Shown here piece by piece: positions 1,749 to 64,000 of a stretch of DNA of 64,000 bases. This stretch comes from Vitreimonas sp. (GTDB lineage Bacteria > Patescibacteriota > Microgenomatia > UBA1400 > PJMF01). Both the position numbers and the translations under genes were made by a program. The stretch spans positions 1,276,309 to 1,340,308 of the forward strand of contig DASPLQ010000012.1 of the NCBI GenBank assembly GCA_035627515.1, written 5' to 3'. The notes below the pieces were generated by a model that saw only the letters and a list, made by a program, of their open reading frames with translations, made no database searches and was not told the DNA's origin. Positions within the stretch are counted from its first letter, which is position 1. Each line of letters opens with the position of its first letter.

Positions 1749-2846
1749 ATGAAGTTTCAGTTTTGGCTAATAGGAATAGCCGGTCTTATCGTTGTTCTGG
1801 GCTTACTTAGTGTGAGCTGGCGCTTTTATGACTCTCAACCTATTCCTTTAGACTTTTCAGCTTTGGCACCAGTTGCTTCTCTAACCCCCATTGTCCCTGA
1901 GACCTTTGCTCCCCAGCCACCTTCATTAGCTCAGTTACTTGATAATGACGTTACTTGGACTACTACCTTAAGCGCTGAGCGGGTCACCACCTTACTCACC
2001 ACTGGTGACGTCCTGACCGCCCGCTCAGTCAACGCCCGTACGGTGCGCGACCAAGACTTTACATGGCCCTTTGTCAAAACGGCTGACAAACTTCAGCAAG
2101 CAGATATCACCTACATCAACCTAGAAACACCACTTGTTTCAGCTTGTCCGGTAACCGTCACTGGGATGATTTTCTGTGGTGATTTTCGTAATATTGAGGG
2201 CTTGTTGTTTGCCGGTGTAGATGTGGTCAACTTAGCTAATAATCATGCTGGCAATCATGATGCAGAAGGCGTGGAGGAAACCGTAGCTGAACTAGAAAAA
2301 AATAATCTATTGGTCAGTGGCGTTCACGGGCCAGTTTATCTTACTAAAGAGGGCCGCACCTTTGCTTTCCTTGGGTATAACGAAGTTGACATTCAACCAG
2401 GTATTAACCTAGCCAAAGATGAGTTGATTCAACAAGAAATCAAAGCCGCACGCCAACAAGCTGACATAGTAATCGTTCAATTCCACTGGGGTATAGAGTA
2501 TACCCATCAACCCAGCTCCAATCAAAAACGGTTGGCACGGCTTGCCATTGATGAGGGTGCTGACATTATCATTGGCAATCATCCACACTGGTTCCAACCA
2601 GTAGAGTTTTATAAAGGTAAACTAATTACCTATAGTCACGGGAACTTTGTGTTTGATCAAATGTGGTCAGAAGAAACACGGACGGGAATTGTCGGTAAGT
2701 ACCACTTTTATGATCACCACTTAATCGACGCTGAGTTTTTGCCAGTTTATATTGAAGAGTATGGTCAGCCACGATGGTTAGAAGGCTCCCATAAAGAAGC
2801 CGTCTTAGATAAATTACGACAGGAAAGTCAGCGGCTTAGCGATTAG
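1749..2846 (+). CDS. CapA family protein (poly-gamma-glutamate synthesis / metallophosphatase-like)
   Basis: It has an N-terminal TM helix, then GDVLTARSVN, NLANNHAGNHD and SHGNFVFDQ, which are characteristic of the PGA_cap/CapA family. Confidence 0.75.
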   Translation: MKFQFWLIGIAGLIVVLGLLSVSWRFYDSQPIPLDFSALAPVASLTPIVPETFAPQPPSLAQLLDNDVTWTTTLSAERVTTLLTTGDVLTARSVNARTVRDQDFTWPFVKTADKLQQADITYINLETPLVSACPVTVTGMIFCGDFRNIEGLLFAGVDVVNLANNHAGNHDAEGVEETVAELEKNNLLVSGVHGPVYLTKEGRTFAFLGYNEVDIQPGINLAKDELIQQEIKAARQQADIVIVQFHWGIEYTHQPSSNQKRLARLAIDEGADIIIGNHPHWFQPVEFYKGKLITYSHGNFVFDQMWSEETRTGIVGKYHFYDHHLIDAEFLPVYIEEYGQPRWLEGSHKEAVLDKLRQESQRLSD

Positions 2847-4662
2847 CAACTTTTAAATCGCGCTTGCGTAAGCGCATGCTCTCGGGCGTAACCTCTAAGA
2901 GCTCATCAGGGGCCAAAAAGGTTAGCATTTGTTCGAGTGACATTTTAACTGGTGGCGTCATCCGGACAGTAGCATCAGCTGAAGCCGCACGCATGTTAGT
3001 TAATTTTTTACCGCGCGTCACATTCATCACTAAATCTTCTTTTTTAGCATTTTGACCTACAATCATACCGGCATACACTTCGGTACCCGGATCAACAAAG
3101 GTCATGCCGCGCTCTTGAGCTTTTTGGAGACCATAGGCTAAAGCTGGGCCCGTTTCGGCTGCAATGATCACTCCTTCGCGTAACCAAGGAATGTCTTCAC
3201 CCTTGGGTTTGTAGCCCAGTGGCAACGAATGGACAATGCCCATGCCTGATGTTTTGGTTTGAAAATCGCTGCGGAAGCCGATTAGGTGACGCGTAGCGAT
3301 TTCATATTCCATACGCGTACCAGTCTTTTGTGGTTTCATCCCTTTAAAGACTGCTTTGCGTTGACCCATCTCGGTGGTCACCACCCCCACATATTGCTCA
3401 GGAACTTCAATCGTAATTAATTCCCAAGGTTCTTGAGTGACACCATCCACGGTTTTGAAAATAACTTCCGGGCGTGACACAGAAAACTCATAGCCTTCAC
3501 GACGCATAGTCTCGATTAAGATGGAGAGATGCAGCTCGCCACGGCCAGATACAATAAACCCATCAGCTGTGGCACCTGGGGCAACGCGCAAACCGACATT
3601 AGTTTCAAGTTCTTTGGTGAGGCGTTCTAAAATTTGACGAGAAGTAGAAAATTGACCCTCGCGACCCACAAAAGGGGAGTTAGAGACCGAAAACTGCATT
3701 TGGACTGTGGGCTCAGAAATTGATAAAGCACCTAAACCCTCTTCCTTACCTAAGGTGGTTAAAGTATCGCCAATATGAGCTTGAAAGCCAGTTAAAGCAA
3801 TAATGTCACCGACACTCGCTTCAGCCACTTCTTCTTTACCTAAACCTTTATAGGTAAACAAGTACTCCACTTTAGATTGACCGACTTTAGCATCATCACG
3901 CACGATCGAGAGTACCTCGCCTTTTTTGACTTTACCACGCCGAATACGACCAATCACGTATTTACCTTTATAGTCATCGGCATCTAAGCTGGTGATTTGC
4001 ATTTGGAAACCACCCTCAATAGCGCCAGCGGGGGCGGGAATCTTATCGATAATGGTCGTAAAAAGCGGCTTCAAAGTCTCACTGTCAGTGATCCGCAACG
4101 CATGATCGGGAGTTGGCTCGGTAGTGAAACCGGCCACACCTTCGCGACCCACGGCATAAATAACCGGGAAATCGAGCTGGGACTCATCGTTGACGACGTC
4201 TAAAAATAAATCATTAATTTCTTCTAATACTTCAGTCACGCGTTGGTCTTTACGATCAACTTTATTAATCACCACAATTGGTTTTAAACCTTGCTCGATA
4301 GCTAGGCGCAACACATAACGTGTTTGAGATAACACACCTTCAGAGGCGTCAACTAAGAGCAAACAACCGTCAGCCATATTCAACACGCGTTCGACCTCAC
4401 CACTAAAATCGGCGTGACCAGGAGTATCCAAAATATTAATTTTGTACTCACCCCAAATCACAGCGGTGTTTTTAGCCAAGATCGTCACGCCACGTTCGCG
4501 CTCTAAATCATTCATGTCCAAAATGGTGGTTTGTTGCATCTCACTTTGATGAGCCGCAAAAACGTTGGCTTGCTTGAGTAGACCATCGACTAAGGTAGTC
4601 TTACCGTGGTCCACGTGAGCAATGATAGCGATATTACGAAGGTTATTTTGAGAAAAAGGCAT
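2836..4662 (-). CDS. typA: Translational GTPase TypA/BipA
   Basis: The G1-G4 GTPase motifs are present (AIIAHVDHGKTT, DTPGH, NKVD) and the protein matches the BipA architecture over its full 608 aa. Confidence 0.95.
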   Translation of the reverse strand: MPFSQNNLRNIAIIAHVDHGKTTLVDGLLKQANVFAAHQSEMQQTTILDMNDLERERGVTILAKNTAVIWGEYKINILDTPGHADFSGEVERVLNMADGCLLLVDASEGVLSQTRYVLRLAIEQGLKPIVVINKVDRKDQRVTEVLEEINDLFLDVVNDESQLDFPVIYAVGREGVAGFTTEPTPDHALRITDSETLKPLFTTIIDKIPAPAGAIEGGFQMQITSLDADDYKGKYVIGRIRRGKVKKGEVLSIVRDDAKVGQSKVEYLFTYKGLGKEEVAEASVGDIIALTGFQAHIGDTLTTLGKEEGLGALSISEPTVQMQFSVSNSPFVGREGQFSTSRQILERLTKELETNVGLRVAPGATADGFIVSGRGELHLSILIETMRREGYEFSVSRPEVIFKTVDGVTQEPWELITIEVPEQYVGVVTTEMGQRKAVFKGMKPQKTGTRMEYEIATRHLIGFRSDFQTKTSGMGIVHSLPLGYKPKGEDIPWLREGVIIAAETGPALAYGLQKAQERGMTFVDPGTEVYAGMIVGQNAKKEDLVMNVTRGKKLTNMRAASADATVRMTPPVKMSLEQMLTFLAPDELLEVTPESMRLRKRDLKVANR

Positions 4663-4725
4663 TCGGTTATTGTACCAGATTTCGGCGCACTACGGTTGAG
4701 TAAAGAATTAAAGAGTAAAGTAACT

Positions 4726-4752
4726 GAGTAATTCAGTAATTAAGTAACTAAG
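4726..4752 (+). repeat. Short intergenic repeat copy A (GAGTAATTCAGTAATTAAGTAACTAAG), upstream of the four-helix-bundle gene
   Basis: It contains the 13-mer AGTAATTAAGTAA at 4735-4747. It is preceded by degenerate AGTAA-type units at 4700-4730. Confidence 0.7.
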
Positions 4753-4761
4753 AAGGAGAAT

Positions 4762-5142
4762 ATGATCAATCATTTTACTAACTTAAGAATTTGGAAAAGC
4801 TCTCATAGTTTAGCTTTAGAAATTTATTATTTATGCGACAAACTGCCTATAAAAGAAAAGTTCACTTTAGAGAGTCAATTAAAAAGAGCTGTTAACTCAG
4901 TCAGTGCTAATATTGCTGAAAGTTTCGGCCGTAAACATACTAAAGACCGTATTAGGTTCTTGTATACATCGAGAGGATCAGCATACGAAGTGCAAAATCA
5001 CCTCCTACTAATTCACAGTCTCAAATATTGCAATGATGGTGAAGTAAAAGACTTAATTCTCAAATATCAAGGCCTGACCAAAGGAATCAACACTTTGATC
5101 AAGAGTCTTCTTAACCAGAATCTTGAATGTAAAGATATTTAA
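4762..5142 (+). CDS. Four-helix-bundle protein (23S rRNA intervening-sequence protein family, TIGR02436-like)
   Basis: At 126 aa its overall pattern (NLRIW..S..LA..IY.L...LP..EKF.L.SQL.RA..SV.ANIAE..GR....D...FL..S.GS..E....L) matches the S23p/IVS four-helix-bundle family. A canonical AAGGAG RBS lies 8 nt upstream. Confidence 0.75.
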   Translation: MINHFTNLRIWKSSHSLALEIYYLCDKLPIKEKFTLESQLKRAVNSVSANIAESFGRKHTKDRIRFLYTSRGSAYEVQNHLLLIHSLKYCNDGEVKDLILKYQGLTKGINTLIKSLLNQNLECKDI

Positions 5143-5151
5143 AATTTATAA

Positions 5152-5166
5152 ATTACTTAATTACTC
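5152..5166 (-). repeat. Short intergenic repeat copy B (inverted relative to copy A), downstream of the four-helix-bundle gene
   Basis: TTACTTAATTACT at 5153-5165 is the exact reverse complement of the 13-mer in copy A. Confidence 0.7.
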
Positions 5167-5171
5167 ATCCT

Positions 5172-5834
5172 ATGAAAATCAGTGATCTACCCACTCATTC
5201 ACGTCCCCGAGAAAAGCTAATCGAAAAAGGCATTACCGGTTTGACCTCGGCTGAAGTCTTCGCGTTAATTCTCCGTACGGGTTACCATGGCAAAAGTGCC
5301 GTCGAAGTCGCTCAACGCATTTTACGGACCTATACGTTGGAACAATTGAGTAAATTAAGCCTCACCGAACTCTCAGAAATTAAGGGGATTGGACCTTCGA
5401 GAGCATCCAACTTAATGGCGGCCTTCGAAATTGGGCGGTTGATTATCAATTATGATCATCAGGTCAGAATCAGTGCTCCTAAAGATATTTATCAGCTCTG
5501 TCAAAACTTACTTGCTAAGAAACAAGAGCATTTGGTGGCTTTTTACTTGGATGCCCGCAGCCAGTTGATTGCTCAAGAGACATTAACTGTCGGTACACTT
5601 ACAAGTGGTATCGTCCACTCCCGTGAAGTGTTTGCACCGGCTTTGCGTCACCGAGCGGCGTGCATTATTTTGGCTCACAATCATCCTTCACAAGACACAG
5701 AGCCGTCTTTAGATGACATTCAAGCCACTGAAAAGCTCATTGATGCCGGTGATTTACTCGACATCCCCATCATTGACCACGTCATCGTCAGTCGCCGCGG
5801 CTGGACCAGCCTCAGAGAGCAAAAGTTGATTTAA
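5172..5834 (+). CDS. radC: RadC-like JAB-domain protein (UPF0758)
   Basis: An N-terminal HhH-like segment is followed by the JAB/MPN motif HNHPS...D. Confidence 0.85.
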   Translation: MKISDLPTHSRPREKLIEKGITGLTSAEVFALILRTGYHGKSAVEVAQRILRTYTLEQLSKLSLTELSEIKGIGPSRASNLMAAFEIGRLIINYDHQVRISAPKDIYQLCQNLLAKKQEHLVAFYLDARSQLIAQETLTVGTLTSGIVHSREVFAPALRHRAACIILAHNHPSQDTEPSLDDIQATEKLIDAGDLLDIPIIDHVIVSRRGWTSLREQKLI

Positions 5835-23917: not shown

Positions 23918-24132
23918 AACTCCCCATCACGGTGGAACAAAAGTCGATACAGATTTCCTTTGACTAAAACTGAGTAAAGACGGCGCTTAACTCCCCCATC
24001 TTTAATATCAGCAATCGAAGTAATTTTTTCTACTTTCAAGACTCGATCTCGCCATTGGAATTTAACAGGTTTAAAGGTAGAGTGAGAGTAGACCCCAATC
24101 ACGTCAATCTTTTCGTGAATTGTTTGGTACAT
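23878..24132 (-). CDS. Small hypothetical protein leading the polymerase cassette
   Basis: This 84-aa ORF overlaps the polymerase start by 40 nt in the same orientation. Confidence 0.35.
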   Translation of the reverse strand: MYQTIHEKIDVIGVYSHSTFKPVKFQWRDRVLKVEKITSIADIKDGGVKRRLYSVLVKGNLYRLLFHRDGEFWMLEEVWVEEGV

Positions 24133-25368
24133 AGTCCTATGGTAACACGAAGAATCCCCGAATCGTCAACCTGGCAGTTAGTGCTACTTTACTTATCTAA
24201 ACCGCTCATAGTAGGTCTCATTAACTTAGCGTTAGTACTAATAATTGGGGCAGTTCTGCAGCGTCTCCAGGTAGTGACAATGCTCACCGGCGGTCAGCCT
24301 TTACCTGACTTCGATGCCTACTATGAAATAGTCCGCCAAGTATGGCTGGGAAACCATCCCTATCGCATCTCCACAATGCAGACTTTAGGCCCACCCCTAG
24401 TGATTGTGCCCTTTTTGCCATTTGGCTTGATATCTATTGAACTGGGGCGAAGTTTCCTGACTTTACTCAGTTTGGGCTCAGTGGGAGCAACAGGATGGAG
24501 GTTGGCAGGAACATGGACTAAAAACCATCGTTCTCGCCTCACAGGAAGCTTGGTGTTAGTAGTGATACTACTGACTTCATTTCCGGCTCGGTTTACGTTG
24601 AGCATGGGTCAACCCAATTTAATTATCGCGTGGTTGGTGACCTTGTTTTTAACGACGGATAACCAGTTTAAAAGGGGAGCTAGCTTAGCTTTAGCAGCGA
24701 TTATTAAAACGTTTTATGGATTCCCAGCCTTGAGCCTGCTGCGATTTGATGGAAAGAGTTGGGTGAGTTTTTGCTTGGTTTTTGGATCAGTGTTGTTACT
24801 CAGTTTGCCATGGATTAGGCCGCATTATTATCTGGATTTTGCTACTCAGAACTTTGTAAGTCTGGTAACTAGTACTCAACCTGCAGTTGATATGGATTAC
24901 TATAATCAATCACTAAAAAGTACTTTTGGTCGATTTAACGCAATTGATTTTTACCAGCCAGCCATGGTGGGGTTCTTGAGTGTCAGTAGTCTGTATTTAT
25001 TAATGCGCAAAAATTACCCAGCTGCCATTGTCCTGTCGCTGATTTTGTCACCAGTGATTTGGATTCATTATTTTGTGGTCTTATTTCCGGTGATAGTGGG
25101 GTTAGGGGCGATCGTTAAAGAAGGGTATTACCCACTGCGACCAAAACTATTTTTAAGTTTAGTCCTGTTTGTAGCGAGCTACCTGTGGTGGACAGAGTTT
25201 CCCTGGATACACCAGGCCTCAAAAAATATCTTTACTGCTTTATTAGCCAGTCATTATTTGATCAGCGCCGGGTTGGTTTTAGGATTATGCGTGGGAATGG
25301 AGCATACTCTTCCTCACGGTCTCAATTTCCTAGTGACACAAAATGGTACTAAAAAAGACACTCATTAG
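24055..25368 (+). CDS. Polytopic membrane protein, possibly a GT-C-like (DUF2029-type) glycosyltransferase
   Basis: It has about 10 TM helices. The true start is probably an internal Met, because the first roughly 25 codons overlap the opposite-strand ORF. The family assignment is weak. Confidence 0.35.
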   Translation: MEFNRFKGRVRVDPNHVNLFVNCLVHSPMVTRRIPESSTWQLVLLYLSKPLIVGLINLALVLIIGAVLQRLQVVTMLTGGQPLPDFDAYYEIVRQVWLGNHPYRISTMQTLGPPLVIVPFLPFGLISIELGRSFLTLLSLGSVGATGWRLAGTWTKNHRSRLTGSLVLVVILLTSFPARFTLSMGQPNLIIAWLVTLFLTTDNQFKRGASLALAAIIKTFYGFPALSLLRFDGKSWVSFCLVFGSVLLLSLPWIRPHYYLDFATQNFVSLVTSTQPAVDMDYYNQSLKSTFGRFNAIDFYQPAMVGFLSVSSLYLLMRKNYPAAIVLSLILSPVIWIHYFVVLFPVIVGLGAIVKEGYYPLRPKLFLSLVLFVASYLWWTEFPWIHQASKNIFTALLASHYLISAGLVLGLCVGMEHTLPHGLNFLVTQNGTKKDTH

Positions 25369-63484: not shown

Positions 63485-63526
63485 TGAGCACCGGTGGTAT
63501 TAACAGTAACTTGTTGATATTGCCCC

Positions 63527-63557
63527 AATTACTCAATTACTTAGTTACTTAATTACT
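63527..63557 (-). repeat. Short intergenic repeat copy C, immediately upstream of the GT4 gene
   Basis: CTTAGTTACTTAATTACT at 63540-63557 is the exact reverse complement of the 18-mer AGTAATTAAGTAACTAAG in copy A at 4735-4752. An AATTACTC half-unit lies in tandem in front of it. Confidence 0.7.
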
Positions 63558-63560
63558 CGT

Positions 63561-64000
63561 ATGCCCTTATCAATAGCGATGCTGTCTTTTCATACTTGTC
63601 CGTTAGCTGCGGAAGAGGGCAAAGAGACAGGGGGCATGAATGTTTATGTTTTAGAGTTATCCACTCAATTAGCCAAACTTGGGCATACTATCGATGTTTT
63701 TACTCGCAGCCAAGATCTAGACAACCCCAAAATTGTCCAGGTTCATGACCACCTCCGCGTCATTCATATTCCCGCTGGTCCTGAACAACCTGTCCCTAAA
63801 AAAGAACTTCGTCAGTATCTACCAGAGTTTGTAAAAAATGTTCATGGCTTCATTGCTAAAGAAAAACTTAACTATGATGTGCTTCATAGTCACTATTATT
63901 TATCCGGCTTAGCCGGTATAGAAATTAATCAACACCTTTCTCAACCTCTCCCACATTTACTCACCTTCCATACATTAGCCCTGATGAAAAACTTAGTCGC
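63561..64000 (+). CDS. GT4-family glycosyltransferase, MshA-like N-terminal domain (partial, runs off window end)
   Basis: An ATG at 63561 opens a frame that stays open to the window end. IAMLSFHTCPLAAEEGKETGGMNVYVLELSTQLAKLGH resembles the MshA/GT4 N-terminus. Confidence 0.7.
   Translation, partial: MPLSIAMLSFHTCPLAAEEGKETGGMNVYVLELSTQLAKLGHTIDVFTRSQDLDNPKIVQVHDHLRVIHIPAGPEQPVPKKELRQYLPEFVKNVHGFIAKEKLNYDVLHSHYYLSGLAGIEINQHLSQPLPHLLTFHTLALMKNLV

Follow-up and report, generated by a model that had tools for sequence, protein, structure and literature searches.

The DNA analysed here is a 64-kb stretch of contig DASPLQ010000012.1 (hereafter the window, which always means the whole stretch). 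Between the divergent genes typA and radC it carries a gene for a protein of 126 amino acids from the four-helix-bundle (4HB) family known from the intervening sequences (IVSs) of ribosomal RNA (rRNA). The gene is enclosed by two short tandem arrays, inverted relative to each other, and gene and arrays together make up a low-GC segment that is missing from the same spacer in four related genomes. We consider it rather probable that this segment is an IVS-type gene cassette of approximately 466 nt (4706-5171) inserted in the divergent typA/radC spacer, with an RNA that would be processed at a stem. 4HB genes lying between inverted short tandem arrays form an architecture that crosses phyla, and the cassette is one divergent case of it. 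The features discussed are as follows.

2836-4662, minus strand: typA, left neighbour of the 4HB gene
4663-4705, no strand: typA-proximal host spacer outside the insert, 43 nt, collinear with the related genome L001
4698-4761, plus strand: upstream purine-rich array of 8-nt units reaching the ATG, with a core at 4718-4752 found by Tandem Repeats Finder (TRF)
4706-5171, plus strand: inserted segment as judged from L001, 466 nt long where L001 has about 23 nt
4735-4747, plus strand: left copy of a perfect 13-nt inverted repeat, AGTAATTAAGTAA, equal to two array units
4762-5142, plus strand: 4HB gene, 126 amino acids, isoelectric point (pI) 9.4, NCBI protein HYD35729.1
5143-5166, plus strand: downstream pyrimidine-rich array, inverted, three units (AATTTATA AATTACTT AATTACTC)
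5153-5165, minus strand: right copy of the 13-nt repeat, exact reverse complement of AGTAATTAAGTAA
5172-5834, plus strand: radC, right neighbour of the 4HB gene, ATG at 5172
63526-63558, plus strand: gene-less array in TTACT orientation, four copies of CAATTACT, preceding a family-4 glycosyltransferase gene with its ATG at 63561

The cassette and its insertion site

An earlier note on this DNA, made from the letters alone, had assigned the open reading frame (ORF) to the IVS-protein family. Profile searches bore this out, as the protein scored 108.8 bits with PF05635 (23S_rRNA_IVP; cut-off 33.8, E 1.9e-31) and 108.9 bits with TIGR02436 ('four helix bundle protein'; cut-off 24). The only solved relative by sequence was PDB 2GSC (XCC0516; E 3.9e-11). 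The motif reported for the PF05635 family is GxxRxxxSxxxNxxE (PMC3936711); its leading G is absent from the window protein, and the remainder, RxxxSxxxNxxE, is formed by R42, S46, N50 and E53, all of which are invariant in the alignment of homologues. A search of 5.8 billion proteins returned no close relative, the next-best being 47% identical. Neither the window nor 66 typA loci of the Candidate Phyla Radiation (CPR) contained any further 4HB gene in phmmer and hidden Markov model searches. The gene lies on the same strand as radC and is divergent from typA.

The same note had described a perfect 13-nt inverted repeat around the gene. The two copies were confirmed at 4735-4747 and 5153-5165, the one being the exact reverse complement of the other, but the arms are not a unique 13-nt repeat: they are tandem arrays of an 8-nt unit, AGTAAYTN, and the 13-mer recurs at 63545-57, where there is no 4HB gene. 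Degenerate AGTAA units, also noticed earlier, were recovered upstream of the gene both by TRF (4718-4752, period 8, 4.4 copies) and by direct reading from 4698, according to which eight units (GAGTAAAG AATTAAAG AGTAAAGT AACTGAGT AATTCAGT AATTAAGT AACTAAGA AGGAGAAT, in this order) fill 4698-4761. The last of them form the Shine-Dalgarno sequence of the 4HB gene, AAGAAGGAG (4750-4758). On the other side, the downstream array ends 5 nt before the ATG of radC. The purine fraction is 0.72 in the upstream arm and 0.42 in the downstream arm. Because the 13-mer consists of two adjacent units of a tandem array, the arms can pair in several registers (17 nt at 94%, 20 nt at 85% and 23 nt at 78%).

Could such a repeat arise by chance? 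In second-order Markov simulations of the window, perfect 13-nt inverted pairs spaced by 100-700 nt occurred with a mean of 1.02 per 64 kb, and 56% of the simulations contained at least one. Chance is thus a sufficient explanation of a bare 13-mer (about one per window); for the array architecture it was rejected. The non-randomness lies in the tandem-array nature of the arms, in their direct contact with the gene at either end and in their recurrence across the gene family. At up to two mismatches the window contained 11 matches to AGTAATTAAGTAA, compared with an expectation of 3.0; none of 100 shuffles reached 11, and the close matches were confined to three arrays, that is, both cassette arms and the array at 63526-63558. 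A second perfect 13-nt inverted pair, AAACTGAGTAAAG, was found at 23967-23979 and 24461-24473; it has CTGAGTAAAG in common with the array unit, and its copies sit within ORFs (one of 84 amino acids and one for a membrane protein of 437 amino acids). Most likely this is the single pair that chance predicts for the window.

The gene-less array ends 2 nt before the ATG of the glycosyltransferase gene, which has no Shine-Dalgarno sequence. A single inverted unit, AGTAACTT, lies at 63505-63512, 14 nt upstream of the array. Judged by its sequence, the array resembles the cassette arms in an empty or decayed state.

We compared the typA/radC region with that of related genomes. The best TypA matches of the window came from Patescibacteria (CPR), with 78% identity. 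In four relatives (L001, L002, L003 and L005; 71-78% TypA identity) typA and radC are divergent and adjacent, separated by a spacer of 60-113 nt that contains no 4HB gene. Since all four keep this short spacer, we take the low-GC segment of the window to be an insertion. The 43 nt next to typA have the same length as in L001 and are identical at about 31 of 43 positions. This likeness stops at 4705/4706, the last collinear stretch being GGTTGAGTAAAG (4694-4705), and the insert was therefore placed at 4706-5171. Its GC content is 31-35%, compared with 42-48% in both flanks, and 431 nt separate the ends of the inverted repeat. At the left junction host site and array unit display microhomology, as GAGTAAAG is found in both the window and L001. 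No clear target-site duplication was detected at the window cassette, and inverted arms are present. The cassette is absent from four relatives and is hence present or absent between genomes. The proposal of an IVS-like mobile cassette living outside rRNA thus stands as far as the segment is discrete, polymorphic, low in GC and laid out like its family; its movement is suggested by the insertion polymorphism, and no mechanism was seen.

Searches of other kinds were negative. Rfam revealed only four tRNAs and no rRNA over the whole window, and gave zero matches over the cassette region with E values up to 1. PADLOC (defence systems), PHROGs (phage proteins) and tblastn against phage genomes likewise gave zero matches, a promoter and terminator scan found nothing that exceeded shuffles, and neither a gene nor a motif of RNase III was found in the window.

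Several observations concern the neighbouring genes and the source of the DNA. An extended -10 element of typA, TGGTACAAT (minus strand, 4677-4669), stops 6 nt short of the typA ATG. It is conserved in L001 and L005 (ATTGTACCAGAT on the plus strand), which suggests a leaderless typA mRNA. A sigma-70-like pair (TTGAAT at 5123-5128 and TATAAA at 5147-5152, spaced by 18 nt) spans the junction between the 4HB gene's 3' end and the first unit of the downstream array. It was not listed by the promoter scan and could, from its sequence, be a promoter of radC's own with a leader of about 12 nt. Finally, protein HYD35729.1 is labelled 'Vitreimonas sp.', an alphaproteobacterium, at NCBI. The label looks wrong, given that the TypA relatives all belong to the Patescibacteria/CPR.

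Arrays around homologous genes

Evidence from the family came from 80 metagenome loci, collected by a scan with an alignment of seven homologues, together with 4 Logan/NCBI loci and 6 plasmid loci. Other ORFs of the same contigs served as controls. Inverted repeats were scored as the best ungapped inverted match between the 160 nt upstream and the 130 nt downstream of a gene. A score of at least 12 was reached by 49 of 77 4HB genes, compared with 2 of 117 other ORFs (Fisher p = 2e-23). The three highest-scoring 'controls' were themselves additional PF05635 paralogues and had other units (7-mers and 9-mers). Short tandem arrays with units of 6-9 nt were present on both sides of the gene in 57/68 non-redundant homologues and 6/106 controls, and a unit common to both arms in inverted orientation in 37/68 and 0/106, respectively. 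The window cassette displays the same traits, with arrays at both ends, an inverted unit and a purine-rich 5' side.

The units vary with the protein. Most loci carry AGGTTN, but GAGATC (L076), TTAGTTG (L147), GTAGCTY (L101), GTGGTTA (L104) and 9-mers were also found. In the nearest homologues, P0002 and P0003, which lie in polysaccharide gene clusters of other organisms, AGGTTN is located upstream and NAACCT downstream. Carriers known by name include Nostoc punctiforme, Aulosira and Trichormus with CAGGAGT heptamers, Geminocystis with AAGGGAA and Riemerella anatipestifer with AAGGTTYA. L107 (690-1830) and L109 (1-1830) contain rows of two or three 4HB paralogues in which every gene has a unit of its own; the units there are AGTTCAA, CGTTAATAG, AACGCAATA (14 copies), AACATAG (10 copies), CAAACCCAA (9 copies) and AACCTC. 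None of the more than 80 4HB loci lay within 23S rRNA when searched for conserved rRNA motifs. The PDDEXK_3 genes beside two 4HB homologues did not carry the same arrays. Downstream of a PDDEXK_3 gene that adjoins a 4HB cassette, at 1040-1210 of L067, a unit of about 52 nt (containing cggtggttaatcttacttcatatttgaaaaca) stands in three direct copies, which are unrelated to the hexamer arrays.

The upstream neighbour was on the strand of the 4HB gene at 56 of 59 loci, the downstream neighbour at 47 of 52, and both at 37 of 40, which argues for dependence on host transcription and against an invertible switch. The arrangement of the window, with the upstream neighbour on the opposite strand and the downstream neighbour on the same one, is rare, being represented by only 1 of 40 family loci. 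Arms with more G than C upstream and more C than G downstream were found at 39 of 69 loci, and the opposite polarity at 6. The 4HB proteins are basic (median pI 9.1).

Occupied and unoccupied versions of one site could be compared among conjugative plasmids of Nostoc that are about 90% identical. The site is empty in four of them and filled in five. The empty site reads TAG GTT ATG, and in the filled sites array, 4HB gene and array replace the 3-nt spacer GTT. The upstream array comprises 5 to 8 units and varies by whole units among the orthologues. The left junction again displays microhomology between host and unit (TTCAGGTTC), and a candidate duplication of TTCTA(A/G) is indistinguishable from a degenerate unit. 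Cassettes of this type are located at other sites in Aulosira and Trichormus. In one orthologue (L162, 867-1430; plasmid pNPM1 of Nostoc sp. N6) some 130 nt have been inserted into the 4HB gene, and this insertion carries units of the ACTCCTG type and a GC-rich hairpin.

Gene-less pairs of arrays occur elsewhere in contigs with 4HB genes, and two of them lie in frame within an epimerase gene. Both, one of 81 nt (L128, 3480-3560) and one of 72 nt (L137, 2962-3033), are hairpin arrays of AGGTTN/AACCTN that occupy one and the same loop of an epimerase resembling GDP-fucose synthase, flanked by ...EAKE and ...VWGTG..., and they are translated as VK/EV...QP/LN dipeptide repeats. Array-derived loops at the same position were also observed in epimerase proteins of L091, L093, L095, L115 and L145. 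A truncated 4HB gene of 67 amino acids between 10 units of AGGTTG and 22 units of AACCTT (L131, 2387-2865) looks like a stage between elements with a gene and elements without one.

Explanations of the cassette

The reading that we favour, an IVS-type gene cassette, starts from what was observed directly, namely the insertion, the arrays, the enrichment in the family, the co-orientation, the gain and loss of units, the gene-less and truncated derivatives, and the exact filled and empty sites. The cassette would comprise a purine-rich AGTAAYTN array running up to the start codon, a basic 4HB gene and an inverted array, and by analogy with the Coxiella IVS it would be transcribed together with the host gene string, here radC. 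Base pairing between the two arrays, for which several registers are available, would give a long-range but imperfect stem. RNase III would act on it, as in rRNA IVSs, and the 4HB message would be excised or insulated. The flanking host RNA would stay functional after processing, which would make the element tolerable in rRNA helices, in operon spacers and in frame within genes. The arrays would accompany the gene when it moves and delimit the element, and the basic, Avd-like 4HB protein probably binds its own arrays or the stem.

A number of results weigh against this reading, above all those that concern RNA. The closing long-range stem of the cassette appeared in both the minimum-free-energy and the centroid fold, but the stem is short and AU-rich, and the region folded no better than shuffles (z = -0.42). 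The best arm duplex reached only a modest -16.3 kcal/mol. With these folding results, the idea of a transcript-level stem enclosing the whole mRNA, which the earlier note had raised as an alternative, was not supported in the form given there. Across the loci, arm duplexes were equally stable in sense and antisense (41 vs 32; Wilcoxon p = 0.94), the arms of the family did not have an excess of G:U over A:C mismatches (23 vs 38), and the order of unit variants was not mirrored between the arms (42 vs 39.6 expected). This last result implies that the complementarity stems from a common consensus unit and not from maintained base pairs, and the three together mean that selection for pairing at the RNA level is not demonstrated. 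Outside the folding results, the common unit was only in direct orientation at 10/68 loci and an array was found on a single side only at 10 of 68. The array at 63526-58, which has the same unit, lacks a gene and directly precedes a start codon, also fits a host regulatory motif. The right-hand boundary of the insertion cannot be fixed because the nearest relatives have only 71-78% TypA identity, and the link to the IVS of Coxiella relies on the description in one paper.

Since the complementarity is due to a common unit, there is room for a role at the DNA level, in which the arrays would form the ends of the element or offer the Avd-like protein a series of sites to bind. In its strict form this alternative holds that the arrays act on DNA only, as in a transposon or a miniature inverted-repeat transposable element, with the terminal arrays being recognised by the 4HB protein or a trans factor for excision and insertion and any RNA stem being incidental. 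We regard it as a serious if rather unlikely possibility. The exact filled and empty sites and the occurrence of the same cassette at several sites are in keeping with it, as are the in-frame insertions in coding sequence and the gene-less derivatives and truncated gene, which recall non-autonomous elements. It would also account for the lack of a strand-specific wobble signal, for the symmetric duplex energies and for the unmirrored unit order, which suits repeated binding sites and not a stem; the microhomology at the left junctions (window and L001, Nostoc) points in the same direction. However, the four-helix bundle is not known as a transposase or recombinase fold, no target-site duplication is unambiguous given that the Nostoc candidate could be a degenerate unit, the strong co-orientation with host genes is unexpected for a purely DNA-level transposon, and the homologous rRNA IVSs are processed as RNA (PMC4990558). 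An improbable account is that the TTACT/AGTAA arrays are host regulatory or translation words before start codons, comparable to the TAACTGA repeats, and that the 4HB gene came to lie between the typA and radC arrays incidentally. Read towards the gene that it faces (typA, radC or the glycosyltransferase gene), each of the three arrays does give TTACT, and in two cases 2-5 nt separate the array from an ATG without a Shine-Dalgarno sequence. TAACTGA repeats reportedly lie, for the most part, within a few nucleotides upstream of start codons (PMC4679880), and a perfect 13-nt inverted repeat is expected about once per window by chance. Yet the typA/radC spacers of the relatives contain no such arrays, the arrays of the window coincide with the low-GC insert, and three arrays in 64 kb do not make a general promoter word. 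Moreover, in unrelated genomes it is the 4HB genes and not other ORFs that are bracketed by arrays, with quite different units.

Two further accounts were considered. The cassette might be what remains of a retroelement, or a satellite of one: an Avd-like protein would insert it through RNA with a reverse transcriptase supplied from elsewhere, and its arrays would arise from repeated copying of a short template. We think this highly improbable. Avd is the obligatory partner of the reverse transcriptase of diversity-generating retroelements (DGRs) and has the same fold family, an RNA intermediate would naturally entail co-orientation and a fixed polarity from purine to pyrimidine, and the array length varies by whole units. 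Replication slippage explains the change in unit number equally well, though, and neither a pair of template and variable repeats nor a reverse-transcriptase motif was found in the window or any related locus, the motif matches obtained there having proved to be sugar epimerases and not reverse transcriptases. A DGR remnant in the window was rejected, as no window ORF contained Y[AVMILC]DD or a DGR reverse-transcriptase motif. A phase-variable switch, in which a recombinase flips the gene by means of the inverted repeats, would fit a whole gene bracketed by such repeats and is hardly credible otherwise. Frequent inversion would mix orientations, but the gene shares the strand of both neighbours at 37 of 40 loci, there is no adjoining recombinase gene, and the arms are tandem arrays of variable length and not a defined crossover site. 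The switch was rejected on the grounds of orientation and the missing recombinase.

Beyond the inserted cassette of the window, we put forward a broader hypothesis with much reserve. PF05635 4HB genes and their inverted arrays may constitute an unrecognised, cross-phylum class of autonomous hairpin elements in which each protein recognises its own unit, and which colonises operon spacers, coding sequences (in frame) and the helices of structural RNAs. [quoted passage not shown]

Relation to known systems

Intervening sequences in rRNA have been known since about 1990. The observations bear on the function and origin of these sequences, of their conserved ORF and of the cyanobacterial STRR repeats. 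Array-bracketed 4HB genes are found in CPR bacteria, Cyanobacteria, Bacteroidota and many uncultured lineages, and the differences between units together with the filled and empty sites connect three separate literatures. The existence of rRNA IVSs with this ORF and of TAACTGA repeats before start codons was already known, and the occurrence of 23S_rRNA_IVP genes inside cas operons has previously been noted in the literature; the link between arrays and the family as a whole seems new. No publication that connects inverted short tandem arrays with 4HB genes outside rRNA was found in a search whose coverage did not extend to most subscription journals. For genome annotation it is of consequence that arrays can encode the C-terminus of the 4HB protein, sit in frame in enzymes and pass for other classes of repeats. 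Nostoc punctiforme and Riemerella are culturable carriers and open to direct experiments; their loci include NPUN_RS33770 on pNPUN01 and NPUN_RS35280 on pNPUN02 of N. punctiforme, and K6T44_RS09915 of R. anatipestifer.

The gene-less array at 63526-58 resembles the STRR and TAACTGA repeats. These are tandem units of about 7 nt in operon spacers, some sets of which can form hairpins (PMC2670836, PMC4679880; reference list of PMC4046671), and repeats of this type are also placed within the gene of RNase P RNA, a structured RNA (PMC2670836, reference list of PMC4046671, PMC4679880). The TAACTGA repeats of Beggiatoaceae, Cyanobacteria and Bacteroidetes often lie just before start codons (PMC4679880). 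Published descriptions of the repeats mention no associated gene. The unit in the window is an octamer and its host a CPR bacterium.

With Avd, the accessory variability determinant of DGRs and a positively charged pentamer that acts on a DGR RNA requiring a duplex of its flanking segments and Avd-binding stem-loops (10.1101/2023.10.23.563531), the window protein has in common the fold family of basic four-helix bundles, whose solved members are pentamers (PDB 2GSC, 4DWL). The RNA core of Avd is, moreover, closed by a duplex of upstream and downstream segments. In contrast to DGRs, there is neither a reverse transcriptase nor a template or variable repeat near the window cassette. PF22296 (bAvd) gave a weak match, below its cut-off (E 7e-4), only for the paralogue L126:221-580, and the window protein matched PF05635 alone.

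Two further groups, the repetitive extragenic palindromes with their associated tyrosine transposases (REP/RAYT, or REPtron) and the Rickettsia palindromic elements, invite comparison. They are similar in that a single gene lies between inverted copies of a short repeat which also occurs gene-less elsewhere in the genome, and in that gene-less hairpin copies are found in frame within coding genes. They differ in that the arms of our cassette are tandem arrays of 6-9 nt units and not a single palindrome, and in that its protein is not a Y1 (HUH) transposase.

The closest resemblance discussed here is to rRNA IVSs such as those of Leptospira and Coxiella burnetii, which have a member of the same protein family (the S23p ORF) in the loop and complementary termini. 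The location is different, as the window cassette lies between the protein genes typA and radC and not in the loop of helix 9, 25 or 45. The Coxiella IVS measures 428-444 nt and ends in a 28-bp stem cut by RNase III; 2-3 tandem GACAGAT heptamers, the number of which varies between strains, stand directly before the ORF, with the 5' RNase III cut at the first repeat, and the GC content is 36% as compared with 42.5% (PMC4990558). Set against this, the stem of the window cassette is far weaker (13 bp if perfect, 17 if one mismatch is allowed, and -16.3 kcal/mol versus 28 bp) and its unit is 8 nt instead of 7 nt long. The 431 nt between the repeat ends of the window nevertheless correspond well to the length of the Coxiella IVS, both have short tandem repeats of variable copy number just before the ORF, and, as in rRNA IVSs, GC content is lower than that of the host and presence is sporadic. 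Complementary termini, sporadic occurrence, foreign GC content and a size of about 0.4-0.8 kb are thus traits which rRNA IVSs and the window cassette have in common, and with its tandem heptamers before the ORF the ORF-bearing rRNA IVS of Coxiella appears to possess part of the anatomy of the cassette.

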